8,668 nt of DNA, from IMG/VR virus record IMGVR_UViG_2740892423_000019. One strand, 5' to 3'. Made by a program: the position numbers and the translations under genes. The stretch is from a virus (taxonomy: Duplodnaviria; Heunggongvirae; Uroviricota; Caudoviricetes). How positions within the stretch are numbered: the stretch's first letter is position 1; each line of letters starts with the position of its first letter. Of this stretch, positions 2,285-8,668 are shown piece by piece. A model generated the notes under the pieces. That model had not been told where the DNA came from. It was given only the letters and a program-made list of their open reading frames with translations, and made no database searches.

Positions 2285-2311
2285 AGCCCGCCGGTTCAGG
2301 CGGGCTTTTTT
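2285..2311 (+). terminator. Rho-independent terminator candidate after lom
   Basis: An 8-bp GC-rich stem, agcccgcc (2285-2292) pairing with ggcgggct (2299-2306), has a ggttca loop and is followed by a T-run (2306-2311), 27 nt after the lom stop codon. Confidence 0.65.
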
Positions 2312-2322
2312 GTGGGGTGAAT

Positions 2323-5300
2323 ATGGCAGTAAAGATTTCAGGTGTACTGAAAGACGGTGCAGGTAAACCGGTACAGAACTGCACAATCCAGCTGAAAGCA
2401 AAACGTAACAGCACCACGGTGGTGGTGAACACGGTGGCATCTGAAAATCCGGATGAAGCCGGGCGTTACAGCATGGATGTTGAGTACGGTCAGTACAGCG
2501 TTATTCTGTTGGTGGAAGGCTTCCCGCCATCGCATGCCGGGACCATCACCGTGTATGAAGACTCACAACCGGGTACGCTGAATGATTTTCTCGGTGCCAT
2601 GACGGAGGATGATGCCCGTCCGGAGGCACTGCGCCGCTTTGAACTGATGGTGGAAGAGGTGGCGCGTAACGCGTCCGCAGTGGCACAGAACACGGCAGCC
2701 GCGAAGAAGTCAGCCAGCGATGCCAGCACATCAGCCCGTGAGGCGGCAACCCATGCGACTGATGCTACAGGCTCAGCACGTGCAGCCAGCACATCAGCCG
2801 GGCAGGCCGCGACGTCGGCTCAGTCAGCGTCTTCCAGCGCAGGAACGGCATCAACAAAGGCTACTGAAGCATCAAAAAGTGCTGCCGCTGCAGAGTCCTC
2901 AAAAAGCGCGGCAGCCACCAGTGCCGGTGCGGCGAAAACGTCAGAAACGAATGCCGCAGCATCACAACAATCAGCAGCCACTTCTGCATCCACCGCGACC
3001 ACGAAAGCGTCAGAAGCTGCCACCTCAGCCCGGGATGCGGCGGCCTCAAAAGAGGCAGCGAAATCATCAGAAACGAACGCATCATCAAGTGCCAGTAGTG
3101 CAGCTTCCTCGGCAACGGCGGCAGGAAATTCCGCGAAGGCCGCAAAAACGTCTGAGACGAATGCGGATAACAGCGCACAGGCGGCAGCAGACTCACAAAC
3201 TGCATCGGCAAACTCCGCGACAGCAGCCAAAAAATCAGAAACCAACGCGAAAAATAGCGAGGCAGCAGCAAAGAGCAGCGAAACCAACGCTAAAGCCAGC
3301 GAAACTAATGCTAAATCCAGTGAAACAAACGCGGCGAAATCTGCGGCGGACGCACTTAATTATCGCAACCAGGCGCAAGTAATTGTTGGCGATAATATCG
3401 GTCTTGGTGAAGTTGCCATGACCTGCACTGATATCTCTGTTGAGCCATCAGGTTATATTGGATTTGTCAGGATTTACATCTCAGCGAAAGGTTATCCATC
3501 AGTAGCGTCTAGTGCCGGTGATAATCTTATTTCTGGTTATATAGTTAGATCAGAAGTGTCAACAAAAAGATATTCCGGTCTATTTGTTGGTTCAGATACA
3601 AAATCATTGTATTCGTACATTTACAGCCAAAGTTCTGGCCCGCAATGGATACGTCATACCCGCAGAGATGAATTAAGCCGCTTTGGTCAAAATGAATCAA
3701 CAACTCGTATGTATGGTCCAACTGGTGATCGTTTCTTTGAAATCCATACTAACGGGAGTTGGGGAGTTTATGATTCTTCTTCTGGACAATGGTCTCCGTT
3801 AGGTTTAGCCCAGGGCGGTACTGGTGGAAGAACTATCGAGCAAGCACGTGCGAACTTGCGGGTAATGTATGAGCAAAAAGCTGGCCTTGCTAATACTGAC
3901 CTAAACACCCTTACCGGTGAATATTCTGGTTTCTATCAACAACCAACGAGCGCTTACGCAACAGAAGAATTAAATTACCCAATCGGTCTGGCGGGCGCTT
4001 TAATAGTGCTCCAAACGAGAGCCAACACTGCTTCTTCCTGCGTTCAGGTGTACTACCCTTATAATAATCCGGGAATTACTTATAGACGAATATATGAAGG
4101 AGGAAGCGGTACCTGGTCTGAATGGAAGAGAGATGTATCAACAGAAAGGGTTGAAGAGGGAAAAGAAACAACTTACGTATATTCTACGTATTCTTCAGGC
4201 GCACCACGCTTACAGGTTTCCAAATCTGGTTTGTGGGGTTGTCATAATGGCACTGGCTGGTTGCCATTAGCTGTTGGGCAAGGAGGTACAGGTGCGACAA
4301 CAGTAGAAGATGCGCGAAACAACTTAAGTCTTGGCGAAAGTAGCGCAGTTAAATTTAAAAACCTTACTTTAACCGAAGCGCTCGACACGACATTAGGACT
4401 GCTTACAAAAACAGGACGAGACTGGAACACGCAGCATACTGATAACATTAATAAATTTATACCAATTGCAGGCAGTACAAACGGCCCGGCAGGTTCTATG
4501 GTTCTTGGCGGCATTCATGTTCAATTTAGTAAAAATTATGCTGTGCAGTTCGGAGGCCGCAATTCCGGTTTTTGGGGAAGAACAATTGAAAATGGAACGA
4601 CGCAGGAATGGAAGAAATTACTAACAGTAGACGATCTCAATTCATCTACCGATCTTGCTGTCAGGTCATTAACCACATCTAACCCGGTAAAATCTGGCGG
4701 AGGGCGAATTGATGTCCTTGGAAGCACGTCAGACTATAGCAAAATGGATTGCTTTGTACGTGGGTTTGATAGCACCGGTAATTCTCTCGCGTGGGCGTTG
4801 GGTTCATCAGTCGGCGTAAGTAAGATGCTGTCGCTAAAAAATTTCTTTAGCGGAGCTGAGATACTGTTAAATGGTAATGACGGCGCGGTTCAACTCAAAA
4901 CAGGTGCTGTTAACGGGGCTAAAGCACAGGCGCTCACTATCAACAAGGATGAGGTTAACTCAACTGTTGATTTAACTCTTACAAAACAAACAGGGACTGG
5001 AAATCGTTTTGTTTTACAGAACTTAGGTAATACAGAACTATCATTTGCCGCAAAAGTATGGGGATCAAGTGATCGACAAAACGTTTTTGAGGTTGGAACG
5101 TCTGCTGCGTATCTGTTTTATGCGCAAAAAACATCAGCAGGCCAGTTGTTTGATGTAAATGGCGCTATTAATTGCACAACGCTGAATCAGTCATCAGACC
5201 GCGACCTTAAAGACGATATTCGCGTTATCAGCGACGCTACGAAAGCAATCCGTAAAATGAACGGGTACACCTACACGCTCAAGGAAAACGGAATGCCTTA

Positions 5301-5628
5301 TGCTGGCGTTATTGCACAGGAAGTAATGGAGGCGATACCTGAAGCTGTGGGATCGTTTACTCATTATGGTGAAGAGTTGCAAGGTCCGACCGTTGACGGC
5401 AACGAGCTACGCGAAGAAACTCGCTATCTTAATGTTGACTACTCCGCCGTGACGGGGTTACTTGTTCAGGTCGCCCGTGAAACAGATGATCGCGTTACCG
5501 CGCTGGAAGAGGAAAATACAACGTTACGTGAAAATCTGGCAACAGCAGGCACCCGGATCACCACTCTGGAAAATCAGGTAAGCGAACTGGTTGCACTTGT
5601 CGGGCAGTTAACAGGAAGCGAACATTGA
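2323..5628 (+). CDS. stf: Side tail fibre protein, mosaic: lambda Stf-like N-terminus, Ala/Ser/Thr-rich shaft, divergent distal region, C-terminal self-cleaving chaperone domain
   Basis: Translation from ATG 2323 begins MAVKISGVLKDGAGKPVQNCTIQLKAKRNSTTVVVNT, which matches the lambda Stf N-terminus as recalled. The ORF track starts at the in-frame GTG 2317, which I regard as an artefact. A GGGG Shine-Dalgarno-like run sits at 2314-2317. The protein has a long low-complexity Ala/Ser/Thr shaft with repeated K(T/S)SETNA units, and two GGTG-x-ARxNL motifs (LGLAQGGTGGRTIEQARANLRV and LPLAVGQGGTGATTVEDARNNLSLG) typical of the phage tail fibre repeat. The gene ends at TGA 5626-5628. Confidence 0.88.
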   Translation: MAVKISGVLKDGAGKPVQNCTIQLKAKRNSTTVVVNTVASENPDEAGRYSMDVEYGQYSVILLVEGFPPSHAGTITVYEDSQPGTLNDFLGAMTEDDARPEALRRFELMVEEVARNASAVAQNTAAAKKSASDASTSAREAATHATDATGSARAASTSAGQAATSAQSASSSAGTASTKATEASKSAAAAESSKSAAATSAGAAKTSETNAAASQQSAATSASTATTKASEAATSARDAAASKEAAKSSETNASSSASSAASSATAAGNSAKAAKTSETNADNSAQAAADSQTASANSATAAKKSETNAKNSEAAAKSSETNAKASETNAKSSETNAAKSAADALNYRNQAQVIVGDNIGLGEVAMTCTDISVEPSGYIGFVRIYISAKGYPSVASSAGDNLISGYIVRSEVSTKRYSGLFVGSDTKSLYSYIYSQSSGPQWIRHTRRDELSRFGQNESTTRMYGPTGDRFFEIHTNGSWGVYDSSSGQWSPLGLAQGGTGGRTIEQARANLRVMYEQKAGLANTDLNTLTGEYSGFYQQPTSAYATEELNYPIGLAGALIVLQTRANTASSCVQVYYPYNNPGITYRRIYEGGSGTWSEWKRDVSTERVEEGKETTYVYSTYSSGAPRLQVSKSGLWGCHNGTGWLPLAVGQGGTGATTVEDARNNLSLGESSAVKFKNLTLTEALDTTLGLLTKTGRDWNTQHTDNINKFIPIAGSTNGPAGSMVLGGIHVQFSKNYAVQFGGRNSGFWGRTIENGTTQEWKKLLTVDDLNSSTDLAVRSLTTSNPVKSGGGRIDVLGSTSDYSKMDCFVRGFDSTGNSLAWALGSSVGVSKMLSLKNFFSGAEILLNGNDGAVQLKTGAVNGAKAQALTINKDEVNSTVDLTLTKQTGTGNRFVLQNLGNTELSFAAKVWGSSDRQNVFEVGTSAAYLFYAQKTSAGQLFDVNGAINCTTLNQSSDRDLKDDIRVISDATKAIRKMNGYTYTLKENGMPYAGVIAQEVMEAIPEAVGSFTHYGEELQGPTVDGNELREETRYLNVDYSAVTGLLVQVARETDDRVTALEEENTTLRENLATAGTRITTLENQVSELVALVGQLTGSEH
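5194..5625 (+). other. C-terminal self-cleaving chaperone domain of Stf (Peptidase S74 / endosialidase-chaperone-like)
   Basis: The motif SSDRDLKDDIRVI has the Ser-Asp-x-x-x-Lys signature of autoproteolytic tail-fibre chaperone domains (phage K1F endosialidase, T5 L-shaped fibre). It is followed by IRKMNGYTYTLKENG and a heptad-like tail, TALEEENTTLRENLATAGTRITTLENQVSELVALVGQL. Predicted cleavage is after the Ser encoded at 5194-5196. The assignment is by motif recall and was not searched. Confidence 0.65.
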
Positions 5629-5679
5629 TATCCTTCAAGCCCTGAAGGAGGCTGTTCCTGGTACGTTCAGACTGTTGTT

Positions 5680-5811
5680 GAGCTGGAAATCGCAACGGAG
5701 GAAGAAACCTTGTTGCTGGAAGTCTGGAAGAAGTATCGGGTGTTGCTGAACCGTGTTGATACATCAACTGCACCTGATATTGAGTGGCCTACGAACCCTG
5801 TCAGGGAGTAA
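5680..5811 (+). pseudogene. tfa: 3' remnant of tail fibre assembly gene tfa (last ~43 codons, no start codon)
   Basis: The segment translates to [43 protein letters not shown], which closely matches the lambda Tfa C-terminus (recalled as ...[37 protein letters not shown]...). It lies in the same frame as stf, directly after the stf TGA, with no ATG, GTG or TTG start and no N-terminal Tfa sequence. Confidence 0.7.
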
Positions 5812-5825
5812 TCATTGGGATTATG

Positions 5826-5858
5826 CCGCAGCACGTCTTAAGCAAGAGCGAGCTGCGG
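5826..5858. repeat. 33-nt palindromic element, copy A (hairpin between the convergent tfa remnant and methyltransferase 3' ends)
   Basis: The sequence is ccgcagcacgtcttaagcaagagcgagctgcgg. An imperfect stem (ccgcagc...gctgcgg) lies 8 nt downstream of the - strand methyltransferase stop codon (5866-5868). It is 33/37 identical, including the flanking ttgg, to copy B at 8526-8558. Confidence 0.5.
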
Positions 5859-5865
5859 TTGGATG

Positions 5866-6534
5866 CTATTTTTTCCCTGAAGCGGAAAACATTACTACAG
5901 TACCTTGAACCTTGGTTTTAACATTCTCGAAATGCTCTGAGAGTATATGTGTTAAGCCTTCTTCGGAATCTTTTGTGTTTGAAAAGATGCCTTTCTGATT
6001 GTAAATGCGCATCAGTTTTTGACCGAAGCTATTGTGCACAACTCCATCGCCAAGAATTGTGGCTCCGTATAGAGTTCCATCGTCAGTTAAGGCCTGCGCC
6101 GCATTGCGTATTACACAGCTTTTTGTAGATATATTTCCAGGCAGGCAGTGAAGAAGGTAAAACATGGAAATGGAATCAAATTGACCATGTAACGCCGCGG
6201 GATAAGGTTCAAAAACATCATGGCTAATTTTATGTTTAATTTTTGATTCCCCAGCCCTTGTAGATGCCGCGTTCAGGCTAGCTTCGTTCAAATCCATTAA
6301 AGATATCAGACTACTCTCAGGTACGTGAGTAAGGTAAAACCCAGTTCCAACACCAATATCCAGATGGTTGTTACCTAAATGTTCCAGAAAGTGTGGAAGA
6401 AGGTGTTCCTTTGTAGGACATCCCCATGCAAGCCGATTTGATACTCCCAAAACCCACCAGTCATAAAGCTTTAGGGTAAGTGGTGTGTAAATTTTAGCCC
6501 CATCATCTGTGTTTTTTTTCATTAATTTCACCAT
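5866..6534 (-). CDS. Class I (Rossmann-fold) SAM-dependent methyltransferase, substrate unknown
   Basis: The 222-aa ORF carries a canonical motif I, HLDIGVGTGFY (hh-D/E-h-G-x-G-x-G), and a downstream acidic motif-II-like LISLMDLNE. GC is around 40%, lower than the phage structural genes. The start is uncertain: ATG at 6534 (MVKLMKK) or ATG at 6522 (MKKNTDD, weak ggtga Shine-Dalgarno-like sequence 6 nt upstream). Confidence 0.72.
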   Translation of the reverse strand: MVKLMKKNTDDGAKIYTPLTLKLYDWWVLGVSNRLAWGCPTKEHLLPHFLEHLGNNHLDIGVGTGFYLTHVPESSLISLMDLNEASLNAASTRAGESKIKHKISHDVFEPYPAALHGQFDSISMFYLLHCLPGNISTKSCVIRNAAQALTDDGTLYGATILGDGVVHNSFGQKLMRIYNQKGIFSNTKDSEEGLTHILSEHFENVKTKVQGTVVMFSASGKK

Positions 6535-6590
6535 GTTATAGTTTTGTTTGTGAATTAAATCAATTATGGTGATGAATTACAAGGGGTTAA

Positions 6591-6860
6591 ATGCTGCCGC
6601 AGCATAGCGATATTGAAATAGCCTGGTATGCTTCGATACAGCAGGAGCCGAATGGCTGGAAGACCGTCACCACATAGTTCTACATCCAGGAATTCAGTGA
6701 GCATATTGCGCCACTTCAGGATGCTGTAGATCTGGAGATCGCAACGGAGGAAGAAAACTCGTTGCTGGAAGCCTGGAAGAAGTATCGGGTGTTGCTGAAC
6801 CGTGTTAATACAACAACTGCACCGGATATTGAATGGCCAACAGGACCCATTATCGAATAG
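6591..6860 (+). pseudogene. Small ORF with a Tfa C-terminal-like domain, interrupted by an in-frame amber codon (TAG 6675-6677)
   Basis: ATG 6591 is preceded by aagggg (Shine-Dalgarno-like). It encodes MLPQHSDIEIAWYASIQQEPNGWKTVTT, then TAG, then in the same frame [60 protein letters not shown]. The second part matches the lambda Tfa C-terminus ([20 protein letters not shown]...[22 protein letters not shown]). No start codon exists after the amber codon. It resembles the small Tfa-C-like proteins of E. coli cryptic prophages (ynaE/ydfK family), from memory and unverified. Confidence 0.5.
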
Positions 6861-6871
6861 TGCATTACGAA

Positions 6872-6904
6872 CTGCAGGATATTATATGGGATAATATTCT
6901 GCAG
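6872..6904. terminator. AT-rich inverted repeat between convergent genes (possible bidirectional terminator)
   Basis: Arms of 14 nt, ctgcaggatattat and ataatattctgcag, carry one mismatch and flank a 5-nt spacer (atggg). The + strand continues with tttatt. The repeat sits between the small ORF stop (6860) and the cyclase stop (6934). Confidence 0.3.
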
Positions 6905-6933
6905 TTTATTGGGGCTGTATTTTAAAAAGGTGT

Positions 6934-8265
6934 TTATTTTGAGTGAGTTATCACCTTGTTTTTTCCGGTTCTTTTGGCTTGATATAACGCTTTATCGGCA
7001 TTGACTAACATTTCAGATGGACTGAGATTATTCTCTTTTGAAGTAAAGCAACCAATACTGACAGTTATTTTCTCAGGTCCATGCGATAATAATTTTTCCG
7101 AGCATTGCTCTTCAATGTTTTTTCTGATTCGCTCTGCAATTGATAGCAAGAGCTTTTGAGTATTACCTTTAATGATAATACCGAACTCCTCACCGCCTAA
7201 GCGCCCTAATATATCCTCTTTCCTGATGGATTTTTTTATTATTCTGGTAACCATTACTATGACTTGATCACCCATATGATGCCCCCATTTGTCATTGATG
7301 CTTTTGAAATTGTCAATATCTAACATTATTACTGAGAAATCATGGTGTTTTGATATATTCTTCAATGAGTCAATAAAGTATCTTCTATTGTATGTATTCG
7401 TTAGTGGATCATGAATTGCCATATGATTAGCATGATTTAATTTCCTGAAAACATAATACATGAGTGTTGAAATGATATAAATCATTGATATCAATTCAAG
7501 AAATTTTGTCATGTACCATGCAGGATGGGATTTATCAATAAAATACAATAAAATTAGATTATTGCATACTGACACTATACTAATAAGTATTATACACAAC
7601 CATATTTTTGAGTAATTACGTATGCTGATGCATGAGCTGATAAGTAATACAAGCCAAAATACTGATATTATTTTGGTGTACACGATATTCCACGTCGACA
7701 AATGACGATTCAGCGAGTATTGTATAATATTAAGACTATATTTTATATTGTCACTGCTTAGATTTTTTGCTACAAACGGAGTAATAAAAAGAATTAATAT
7801 TGACAAAACAACAATTATTATGTTTCTTTTATCTTCTAAAACACTTTTATTTTTAACATTGGTGGAATAAACAGCCAGAAAGATTATAGATATAAAGCTG
7901 AACTGACGGAATAGATAATATATTGCGATATCATTTGATTTCTGATAGATTGTAGATAAATCGTTACCTAACGGAGATAAAGAAATAATAGCCACTTCTA
8001 ATAAATAATACGTGTTGCTCAAAAACGCGAATGAAAGAATTAAGAGATAACTTTGTCTCTGATTAGAAACATAGTAAAGCAATAGAAAAATAAAAATCAT
8101 CAGGTTTATGAAAAAAAGCCCAATAATGAAAACACTATAACTTATTTGTGTTGTTTGTGTTATGTATATTCCATTATTTTCATGCAGTAACAAAAATATA
8201 ATAGAGATGCATGAAAATAAAAAGATGAAGATTTTTATTTTTATAGGTACCTGCTTGATAATCAT
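6934..8265 (-). CDS. Membrane-anchored diguanylate cyclase: N-terminal polytopic membrane domain (MASE-like) plus C-terminal GGDEF domain with GGEEF active site and RxxD I-site
   Basis: The 443-aa ORF has ATG at 8265-8263 with aggtg 5 nt upstream on the - strand. The first ~270 residues are highly hydrophobic, with about 8 predicted transmembrane segments rich in I, L and F. The GGDEF domain motifs are all present: HDPLTNTYNRRYF, MLDIDNFKSINDKWGHHMGDQV, the I-site RKED (7213-7224), and RLGGEEFG with GGEEF at 7183-7197. GC is about 25-30% by hand count on sampled 60-nt lines. The architecture resembles E. coli YcdT/DgcT-type cyclases and possibly the prophage-associated DgcX reported in some pathogenic E. 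coli; both comparisons are from memory. Confidence 0.9.
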   Translation of the reverse strand: MIIKQVPIKIKIFIFLFSCISIIFLLLHENNGIYITQTTQISYSVFIIGLFFINLMIFIFLLLYYVSNQRQSYLLILSFAFLSNTYYLLEVAIISLSPLGNDLSTIYQKSNDIAIYYLFRQFSFISIIFLAVYSTNVKNKSVLEDKRNIIIVVLSILILFITPFVAKNLSSDNIKYSLNIIQYSLNRHLSTWNIVYTKIISVFWLVLLISSCISIRNYSKIWLCIILISIVSVCNNLILLYFIDKSHPAWYMTKFLELISMIYIISTLMYYVFRKLNHANHMAIHDPLTNTYNRRYFIDSLKNISKHHDFSVIMLDIDNFKSINDKWGHHMGDQVIVMVTRIIKKSIRKEDILGRLGGEEFGIIIKGNTQKLLLSIAERIRKNIEEQCSEKLLSHGPEKITVSIGCFTSKENNLSPSEMLVNADKALYQAKRTGKNKVITHSK

Positions 8266-8337
8266 GTACGCACCTGAGAATGATATATATATAATATGTA
8301 TCGCTACAAATAACGATAATTTCTTACTGGTGATAGT

Positions 8338-8366
8338 ATACTATTATTCTGGTTAATCGCTGTCAA
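8338..8366 (-). promoter_or_regulatory. Candidate sigma70 promoter for the diguanylate cyclase
   Basis: On the - strand there is a perfect -35 TTGACA (plus-strand tgtcaa, 8361-8366), a 17-nt spacer, and a -10-like TAGTAT (plus-strand atacta, 8338-8343), about 70 nt upstream of the ATG. This is a hand prediction in an AT-rich region where chance matches are common. Confidence 0.25.
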
Positions 8367-8525
8367 ATTGATGATTTTGGTTAGTATTGCAATAGCGAAG
8401 AGTTTGATCCGGTAAGACTGGCTAGGCAAGGCTATACCAAAAAATCAGTGTAGGTTCAGAAAACGATGCACCATACAATCATCAATAATTTCAAATTGTC
8501 CATTGTGCATAAATCATAAAGAAAA

Positions 8526-8558
8526 CCGCAGCACGTCGTATGCAAGAACGTGCTGCGG
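8526..8558 (-). terminator. 33-nt palindromic element, copy B; on the - strand a hairpin followed by a T-rich tract (terminator candidate for a gene entering from the right edge)
   Basis: The sequence is ccgcagcacgtcgtatgcaagaacgtgctgcgg, with a perfect 11-bp stem (ccgcagcacgt / acgtgctgcgg) and an 11-nt loop. On the - strand the stem is followed by ttttctttatg. Reverse-strand frames at 8587-8668 remain open to the window edge, consistent with the 3' end of a - strand gene. Confidence 0.4.
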
Positions 8559-8668
8559 TTGGCTGGTGAACTTTCTGGATTTGCCCCTATATTTCCAGAC
8601 ATCTGTTATCACTTAACCCATTACAAGCCCGCTGCCGCAGATATTCCCGTGGCGAGCGATAACCCAGC

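Follow-up and report, generated by a model that had tools for sequence, protein, structure and literature searches.

Probable independent morons, a ybcY-family methyltransferase gene and dgcX, in the hairpin-delimited cargo slot of a lambda-like Escherichia coli prophage

The cargo interval and its two large genes

Positions 5866-8558 of an 8,668-nucleotide Caudoviricetes sequence (IMG/VR record IMGVR_UViG_2740892423_000019; "the window" is this whole stretch) hold a gene for an S-adenosylmethionine (SAM)-dependent methyltransferase, a small open reading frame (ORF) resembling the tail-fibre assembly gene tfa, and a diguanylate cyclase gene. A first-pass annotation had proposed that the three form one lysogenic-conversion unit coupling SAM-dependent modification to cyclic di-GMP (c-di-GMP) signalling, with independent morons as its fallback. 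Comparison with 5426 complete E. coli genomes and with a sample of 120 IMG/VR loci, gathered via the sequence of the hairpins described below, supports the fallback: the methyltransferase gene and the cyclase gene, dgcX, are very probably two independent morons, both known before, that share a cargo slot delimited by hairpins. Morons of lambdoid phages, in the concept of Hendrix and Juhala, are single accessory genes of deviant GC content that lie between or after phage genes, are variably present, are expressed from the prophage and bring their own promoter-like and hairpin elements. As the right arm of a lambda-like E. coli prophage, the window runs from the end of J through lom, stf and the interval under study to an IS2 terminus. 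We are confident that the interval, which directly follows J-lom-stf, is the accessory ("b-region") cargo end of the prophage, and its earlier description as prophage cargo adjoining stf and tfa was borne out. The features of the interval and its left border are as follows.

5640-5811, plus strand: tfa 3' remnant no. 1, a C-terminal part, behind an stf that has its own S74 chaperone domain
5826-5865: hairpin P1, a 33-nucleotide (nt) palindrome (5826-5858) with a TTGGATG tail; left boundary of the methyltransferase cassette
5866-6534, minus strand: ybcY-family class I SAM-dependent methyltransferase gene, 222 amino acids (WP_000239881.1; phrog_2132)
6535-6590: divergent spacer of 56 bp between the methyltransferase gene and the second tfa remnant; probable methyltransferase promoter region
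6591-6860, plus strand: tfaX-like chimeric tfa pseudogene, interrupted in frame by TAG at 6675-6677; recombination joint at about 6695-6760
6872-6904: hairpin Pm, AT-rich, with a 14-bp stem; boundary between the cassettes
6934-8265, minus strand: dgcX, MASE4-GGDEF diguanylate cyclase gene, 443 amino acids (GGEEF at 357-361, RKED I-site at 348-351)
8338-8366, minus strand: candidate sigma-70 promoter of dgcX, TTGACA-17-TAGTAT (10/12 matches in a consensus scan)
8526-8565: hairpin P2, a palindrome (8526-8558) with an 11-12 bp GC-rich stem and a TTGGCTG tail; right boundary of the dgcX cassette

Pfam domains confirmed both large ORFs as first described. The methyltransferase matched Methyltransf_12, Methyltransf_23, Methyltransf_25 and Methyltransf_11, all above curated cut-offs, as well as phrog_2132 (E=7.9e-157). 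A class I methyltransferase domain with a glycine-rich SAM-binding motif is present, and residues D59, G61, G63, T64 and G65 are invariant across 31 homologues. The gene has 100% nucleotide identity to the WP_000239881.1 gene of strain E2865, is 99.3% identical to ybcY of the K-12 prophage DLP12 (frameshifted in K-12), and is carried by the active phages PhiR26_1, 2G7b and ev243. In Salmonella, Enterobacter, Citrobacter and their relatives, genes 56-70% identical to it are normal residents of the chromosome. A single-sequence AlphaFold model was unusable (predicted local distance difference test score, pLDDT, 32.8), and we used instead an AlphaFold2 model built from an alignment (pLDDT 89.9). 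This model has a Rossmann-type fold that matched solely small-molecule or lipid methyltransferases, and the enzyme is predicted to act separately from the cyclase, on some small molecule or lipid. The 56-bp intergenic region upstream, confirmed at 6535-6590, contains promoter-like hexamers on the minus strand at 6590-6563 (consensus scan). The K-12 spacer between ybcY and tfaX has been listed as a site bound by H-NS and, in vitro, by RpoD holoenzyme (PMC3946193).

The cyclase joins an N-terminal MASE4 membrane domain (PF17158, E=1.8e-35, residues 40-274) to a GGDEF domain (PF00990, E=9.5e-45) with an intact GG(D/E)EF active site. The RxxD I-site, a feature described for DgcX (PMC4287979), is RKED at 348-351, followed by ILGRL and then GGEEF; it thus lies five residues upstream of the active site. 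We identified the protein as DgcX because the position of GGEEF fits the E359/E360 numbering of the catalytic mutants E359A/E360A (PMC10459773), MASE4 is present, and identity to the genes beside lambdoid prophages at the lambda attachment site attB in enteroaggregative (EAEC) and enterotoxigenic (ETEC) E. coli is 99.3-99.8%. Identity in this range extends over all 1332 nt in 670 genomes, and near-identical genes lie at lambda attB beside ybhB-bioA in EAEC strain 042 and many other strains. The published, near-identical protein synthesises c-di-GMP and raises cellulose and biofilm output (PMC4287979, PMC10459773). Strong, RpoD- and RpoS-dependent expression of dgcX::lacZ has been reported (PMC4287979); the candidate sigma-70 promoter agrees with this result, and dgcX is probably driven by a promoter of its own.

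Co-occurrence of the two genes and the joint in tfa

The annotation had suggested co-occurrence across genomes as a check on its three-gene unit, and the unit fails that check. The methyltransferase gene is present in 3799 of the 5426 complete genomes and dgcX in 767 (about 14%), yet the contiguous block of tfa remnant, P1, methyltransferase gene, tfa remnant, dgcX and P2 occurs in only 190. The pair is therefore adjacent in 5% of methyltransferase-carrying and 25% of dgcX-carrying genomes. Among the 120 IMG/VR loci, 41 have the methyltransferase gene, three have dgcX and none has both. Loci with the methyltransferase gene alone continue with various genes: appY in K-12, an alpha/beta hydrolase gene and ompT in E2865 and PhiR26_1, an IS66 element in O157:H7, and ompT directly in CFT073. 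Loci with dgcX alone run from a full or partial tfa directly into dgcX, and are sited at ybhB, dsdC/intS, yodB and torT. This is not the co-occurrence of a co-inherited module or operon, and we found no evidence linking the methyltransferase to c-di-GMP signalling.

The third member of the proposed unit, a small Tfa-C-like ORF, does not hold up as a gene. Within 6591-6860 there is no full-length Tfa domain in an uninterrupted frame: the frame is broken by the TAG at 6675-6677, the match to Caudo_TAP (PF02413) covers only the C-terminal 52 of 131 profile positions (79-130), and the N-terminal 28 codons are unrelated to lambda Tfa. To map the joint, 6535-6960 was aligned against methyltransferase-type and dgcX-only loci. 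In 6535-6690 the window has 4-5 mismatches to the former and 85-94 to the latter, whereas in 6761-6933 the numbers are 66-76 and 1-4. The switch between locus types places the crossover at about 6695-6760, inside the conserved tfa 3' end, and by this alignment the small ORF reads as a recombination scar, a chimeric tfa pseudogene. Five of the 190 composite loci were examined for position (042, MB53, DS26-1, RMDEC332 and FDAARGOS_433). All five lie at lambda attB and share both the CAG-to-TAG change and a degenerate P1, which points to a single origin followed by inheritance; the composite arrangement thus looks to have arisen once.

The first tfa remnant, at 5640-5811, matches Caudo_TAP at profile positions 90-130 of 131 (E=6.4e-19) and shares with 6715-6841 a 127-nt repeat of 89% identity. 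Annotations of strains 042 and MB53 list it as a partial tfa, and the whole composite locus occurs in 042, a well-studied EAEC strain. A separate observation on both remnants concerns Rfam family RF02111 ("IS009"), which matches 6614-6817 in the second remnant with 129.9 bits (gathering score 117) and, more weakly, 5568-5768 across the stf 3' end and the first remnant (92.7 bits). The model of this candidate small RNA (sRNA) family therefore appears to derive from the 3' region of a gene for tail-fibre assembly.

We weighed against this evidence the idea that methyltransferase, small ORF and cyclase are a co-selected lysogenic-conversion module coupling SAM-dependent modification to c-di-GMP. 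The composite arrangement is 99.6-99.7% identical in its 190 complete genomes with both large ORFs intact, the methyltransferase gene and dgcX are on the same strand, and P1 and P2 bracket the whole interval, which is exactly what sites with a single hairpin (see below) miss. These points are outweighed by the low rates of adjacency, the absence of any IMG/VR locus with both genes, the stop-interrupted tfa fragment in the place of a third gene and the apparent single origin of the composite. Moreover, no GGDEF gene adjoins the chromosomal methyltransferase homologues of Salmonella, and the methyltransferase fold matches generic small-molecule enzymes. The lower GC content said to be common to the three genes is not shared: it is 40.8% for the methyltransferase gene, 48.5% for the tfa remnant (as in stf, 48.3%) and 29.6% for dgcX, a strong difference between the two intact genes. 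We consider such a module highly improbable, and two independent morons remain the favoured interpretation. Some observations do pull the other way. The two genes are on one strand, 399 nt apart with a hairpin and an antisense pseudogene between them; Pm has a poor U-tract on that strand, so read-through co-transcription may occur. A strict promoter/terminator scan found no canonical terminator in the region. Selection for the pair, and not clonal descent, could explain why both ORFs are intact in 190 genomes, and the single origin of the composite was judged from five loci of 190.

Boundary hairpins and the cargo slot

The annotation had noted two copies of a 33-nt palindrome around the interval. 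The repeat is real, with P1 and P2 identical at 29/33 core positions and at 35/40 when the shared TTGGMTG tail is included (matched by 0/200 shuffles), but there are three copies rather than two: CYGCAG-N21-CTGCRG has three matches in the window and none in 200 shuffles. The inverted repeat reported between the small ORF and the cyclase gene is present at 6872-6904 and is this third, AT-rich member of the palindrome family, Pm. P1 is degenerate, with two substitutions in its 3' arm, and lies 7 nt from the methyltransferase stop codon in 8/8 methyltransferase loci from complete genomes and deposited phages. Pm (fold z-score -6.3) stands after the stop codons of both tfa on the plus strand and dgcX on the minus strand, at a constant distance from dgcX in the 7/7 dgcX loci studied in full, and is the positional homologue of a lambda hairpin at 22573-22606. 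P2 (fold z-score -3.8) keeps a constant distance of 260 nt upstream of dgcX in loci at five chromosomal sites and is homologous to lambda 24162-24195. The stem has been kept by compensatory changes at pairs 2, 7, 9 and 10 of Pm and at pair 7 of the tfa-side copy in lambda; pair conservation was tabulated by script, as a MAFFT alignment had misplaced a one-base bulge.

On the minus strand the 12-bp stem of P2 is followed by UUUUCUUUAU. UUUAUU comes after Pm on the plus strand, and no U-tract adjoins P1. The hairpins look like transcript-end hairpins or terminators. Pm is likely a terminator for both tfa (plus strand) and dgcX (minus strand), and dgcX may be insulated by the hairpins on its two sides. 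In a scan of species-representative genomes, the exact form of the hairpin was found only in Escherichia and Shigella; matches in high-GC and other metagenome-assembled genomes look like chance or contamination. A repetitive extragenic palindromic (REP) element was rejected, the hairpin being unlike the REP consensus. A gix/hix-type invertase site, considered because the invertase gene pin often abuts the hairpin, was also rejected: gix/hix half-sites are AT-rich, and the hairpin sequence is unlike them.

Two further observations concern the hairpin itself. In lambda (NC_001416.1), ea47 is bracketed by copies of the palindrome at 22573-22606 and 24162-24195, 28/34 identical by eye, the first of which starts 15 nt past the tfa stop codon; a literature search found no description of these ea47-flanking hairpins or of their function. 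In addition, the 3' terminal hairpin of the Shigella chromosomal sRNA CssrB (Rfam RF02799) is this palindrome, a hint that RNAs with their 3' ends there have been observed in Shigella. CssrB matches 8462-8557 and 5795-5857 with 44 and 24 bits, both below the gathering score. Apart from this sub-threshold 3' hairpin, no Rfam family matches the hairpin, and literature searches on CssrB and on exchangeable effector loci yielded nothing usable other than PMC3945230.

The lambda homology also bears on the origin of dgcX. In published work, dgcX was always directly adjoining lambdoid prophage DNA (9/61 genomes; PMC4287979; Richter et al. 2014), and the authors considered it host DNA captured by aberrant excision, a "hitch-hiking" of the specialised-transduction kind. 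Its constant position at the extreme prophage end beside host genes fits that proposal, as does its absence from all 50,697 deposited phage genomes. In a dgcX-only prophage at ybhB, however, P2 is followed at a distance of 348 nt by the att core GCTTTTTTATACTAA. The DNA right of P2 in this locus is homologous to lambda 24162-24265 and, after about 100 nt, to the attP arm at 27471-27742; the segment (6593-7078 of that locus) is without lambda 24266-27470, which contains ea31 and ea59, and the hairpin flank runs almost directly into the attP arm. With lambda-homologous DNA between P2 and the att core, dgcX lies inside attR, in the slot held by ea47 in lambda. The cassette also recurs, with unchanged boundaries, at five different chromosomal sites. 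We therefore give the capture of host DNA scarcely any credence, and dgcX, judged from the sequence of these loci, is a true b-region gene of the phage, sited in the ea47 slot, and not flanking host DNA. A dgcX variant of 94.5% identity was seen in a decayed prophage remnant at dsdC/intS in strain SCU-113. The hairpin flanking it has three broken pairs and a fold energy of -8.2 kcal/mol, against about -21 kcal/mol, and looks like an element decaying once its prophage is dead.

The slot was found in a full series of states. An empty site of lambda type consists of the lambda tfa flank (43/50), one hairpin and the lambda b-region flank (43/50). Two empty sites of window type (L025 and L089) have the left flank of P1 (50/50), a single hairpin and a P2-type right flank (48/50). 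With the window's own flanks on either side of one hairpin, these two sites uphold the annotation's view of the palindromes as boundaries, and the P1-P2 interval is therefore an insertion/deletion polymorphism. Of 38 evaluable methyltransferase-only loci, 21 have the cassette between two hairpins with a spacing of 1049 nt, and the repeat of this cassette includes the hairpin and about 170 nt from the 3' end of tfa. In dgcX-only loci dgcX stands between Pm and P2, and the window itself is the double state. Presence/absence polymorphism at a fixed position, as expected of morons, was thus seen in empty, each single and double form, and so the series argues for two independent morons in one cargo slot.

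We propose that the composite arose from two cassettes. The first is P1, ybcY on the minus strand and a tfa remnant, the same as tfaD-ybcY-tfaX of K-12 DLP12 and the corresponding locus of PhiR26_1. The second is Pm, dgcX on the minus strand and P2, in lambda's ea47 slot between the hairpin copies and inside attR. A homologous crossover in the conserved tfa 3' end would have joined a methyltransferase-type arm to a dgcX-type arm, leaving the chimeric, stop-interrupted tfa pseudogene. Experiments have shown that lambda and defective prophages exchange stf/tfa sequence by homologous recombination dependent on Red-beta and RecA (PMC3945230). The hairpins, being shared, may also serve as short homologies for gain, loss and reassortment of cassettes, a role as recombination joints that we infer from the empty and occupied states.

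Reassortment beyond these two genes is suggested by the neighbours of the hairpin: at least 12 distinct left flanks occur beside it, combined in various ways with two main right flanks. Cargo beside it includes genes for IpaH-type NEL E3 ligases, an EcoRII endonuclease with a C5 methylase, pin invertases and a membrane protein. We offer as a tentative idea, with the odds somewhat against it, that in lambda-like phages of Escherichia and Shigella the 33-34-nt hairpin CCGCAG...CTGCGG serves a b-region cassette array as a portable and conserved boundary ("linker") element, with unrelated genes (ea47, dgcX, ybcY, ipaH, EcoRII restriction-modification genes, pin plus a regulator) gained, lost and reassorted at or beside it. 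If true, this would provide a concrete molecular basis for the movement of virulence-related morons between prophages. One hairpin sequence recurring at the boundaries of many unrelated morons sets these loci apart from morons in general, and to our knowledge a recurrent, shared boundary hairpin is not part of the moron definition.

The same features could be taken to mean that the hairpins are sites of a dedicated site-specific cassette exchange, integron-like or otherwise enzyme-directed, and not passive terminators supplying short homology. One hairpin separates each cassette, occupancy may be empty, single or double, breakpoints fall at or within the 33-40-nt element, its structure is maintained by compensatory changes, and the cargo is mostly on one strand. 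Arrays of integrons likewise have single-gene cassettes parted by imperfect palindromes (attC), in empty and occupied states. The palindromes of the window are much shorter, however, and the exchange took place within tfa homology; the similarity is one of resemblance only, not membership. Neither an IntI-type integrase nor attI was found, the window has no integrase ORF, and elsewhere the neighbours of the hairpin differ widely by locus with no dedicated recombinase consistently adjacent; pin, beside some hairpins, belongs to a tail-fibre inversion system. The joint in the window lies in tfa and not in a hairpin, the repeat of about 170 nt of tfa 3' end plus hairpin is typical of homologous recombination, and Red/RecA-dependent exchange has been shown in this region (PMC3945230). 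Dedicated exchange is thus very improbable, and we favour hairpins that would act as transcript ends and incidentally supply homology.

Known relatives, prophage setting and further cargo

Most of what lies at the locus has been described before. DgcX of EAEC and O104:H4 (PMC4287979, PMC10459773) is the same protein, adjacent to lambdoid prophages and mostly at attB beside ybhB. Added here are its position inside attR, in the ea47 slot and between two hairpins, and the interposition of a ybcY cassette between stf and dgcX in a quarter of carriers. The tfaD-ybcY-tfaX-appY region of K-12 DLP12, like PhiR26_1, 2G7b and ev243, has the same order of tfa 3' end, hairpin, methyltransferase gene on the minus strand and tfa remnant, and the window's methyltransferase cassette is 96.7-97.5% identical to the phage copies. 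It differs in that K-12 ybcY is frameshifted and followed by appY, and other loci continue with an alpha/beta hydrolase gene and ompT, whereas in the window the next cassette is dgcX and the tfa remnant is chimeric, with a nonsense codon. The lambda b region (tfa, hairpin, ea47, hairpin, ea31-ea59, attP) has in common with these loci a reverse-strand accessory gene between two 34-nt palindromes and, right of P2, a flank homologous to lambda 24196 onward and then the attP arm. The cargo is ea47 in lambda as opposed to dgcX, or the methyltransferase gene plus dgcX, here, where ea31 and ea59 are missing.

Neither gene is new, nor is its association with prophages or the order tfaD-ybcY-tfaX in K-12, and the locus is ordinary. 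To class it as a novel module of "methylation plus c-di-GMP" would be a mistake, and no new biology is needed: DgcX is a published cyclase associated with biofilm and virulence, and ybcY is a common prophage gene. The additions are modest: dgcX is placed inside attR, in the ea47 slot, and one hairpin is present at the joints of many unrelated cassettes. The conserved hairpin at cassette joints, including those of Shigella ipaH, is a testable handle on the shuffling of accessory genes among lambdoid prophages.

The remaining features of the window are:

30-1592: J, 3' end
1659-2258: lom (Ail_Lom, E=3e-120)
2317-5628: stf, side tail fibre gene (N-terminal domain, prophage tail fibre; C-terminal domain, S74 chaperone)
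8566-8575, plus strand: first bases of a b-type flank homologous to lambda 24196 onward, which normally leads to attR
8576-8668: terminal part of IS2, inserted in the b-type flank

Homology of the window to strain 042 ends at 8575, and 8576-8668 has 95-96% identity to IS2 ends in many genomes. IS2 begins 17 nt past hairpin P2 and hides attR and the host junction of this prophage. Within stf, 2698-3255 is an Ala/Ser/Thr-rich stretch of degenerate 33-41-nt repeats (7 and 4 copies) with strong AT skew, probably a coiled or fibrous shaft segment.

Several IMG/VR loci carry other cargo beside the hairpin. Genes for IpaH-type NEL E3 ubiquitin ligases, known as Shigella effectors, lie to its left in six (L026, L042, L062, L071, L095 and L088), and several of these contigs have the ybcY methyltransferase cassette to its right. 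In another (L085), a complete EcoRII-type restriction endonuclease gene and a C5 cytosine methylase gene are situated between tfa and the hairpin, about 0.25-3 kb to its left. Yet another cargo set fills this slot in O157:H7 strain 4276 (L004). There, reverse-strand genes at 2290-4503 of the locus encode a manganese catalase, a general stress protein and two ferritin-like proteins; tfa lies on one side of them and, on the other, the hairpin before the methyltransferase gene.

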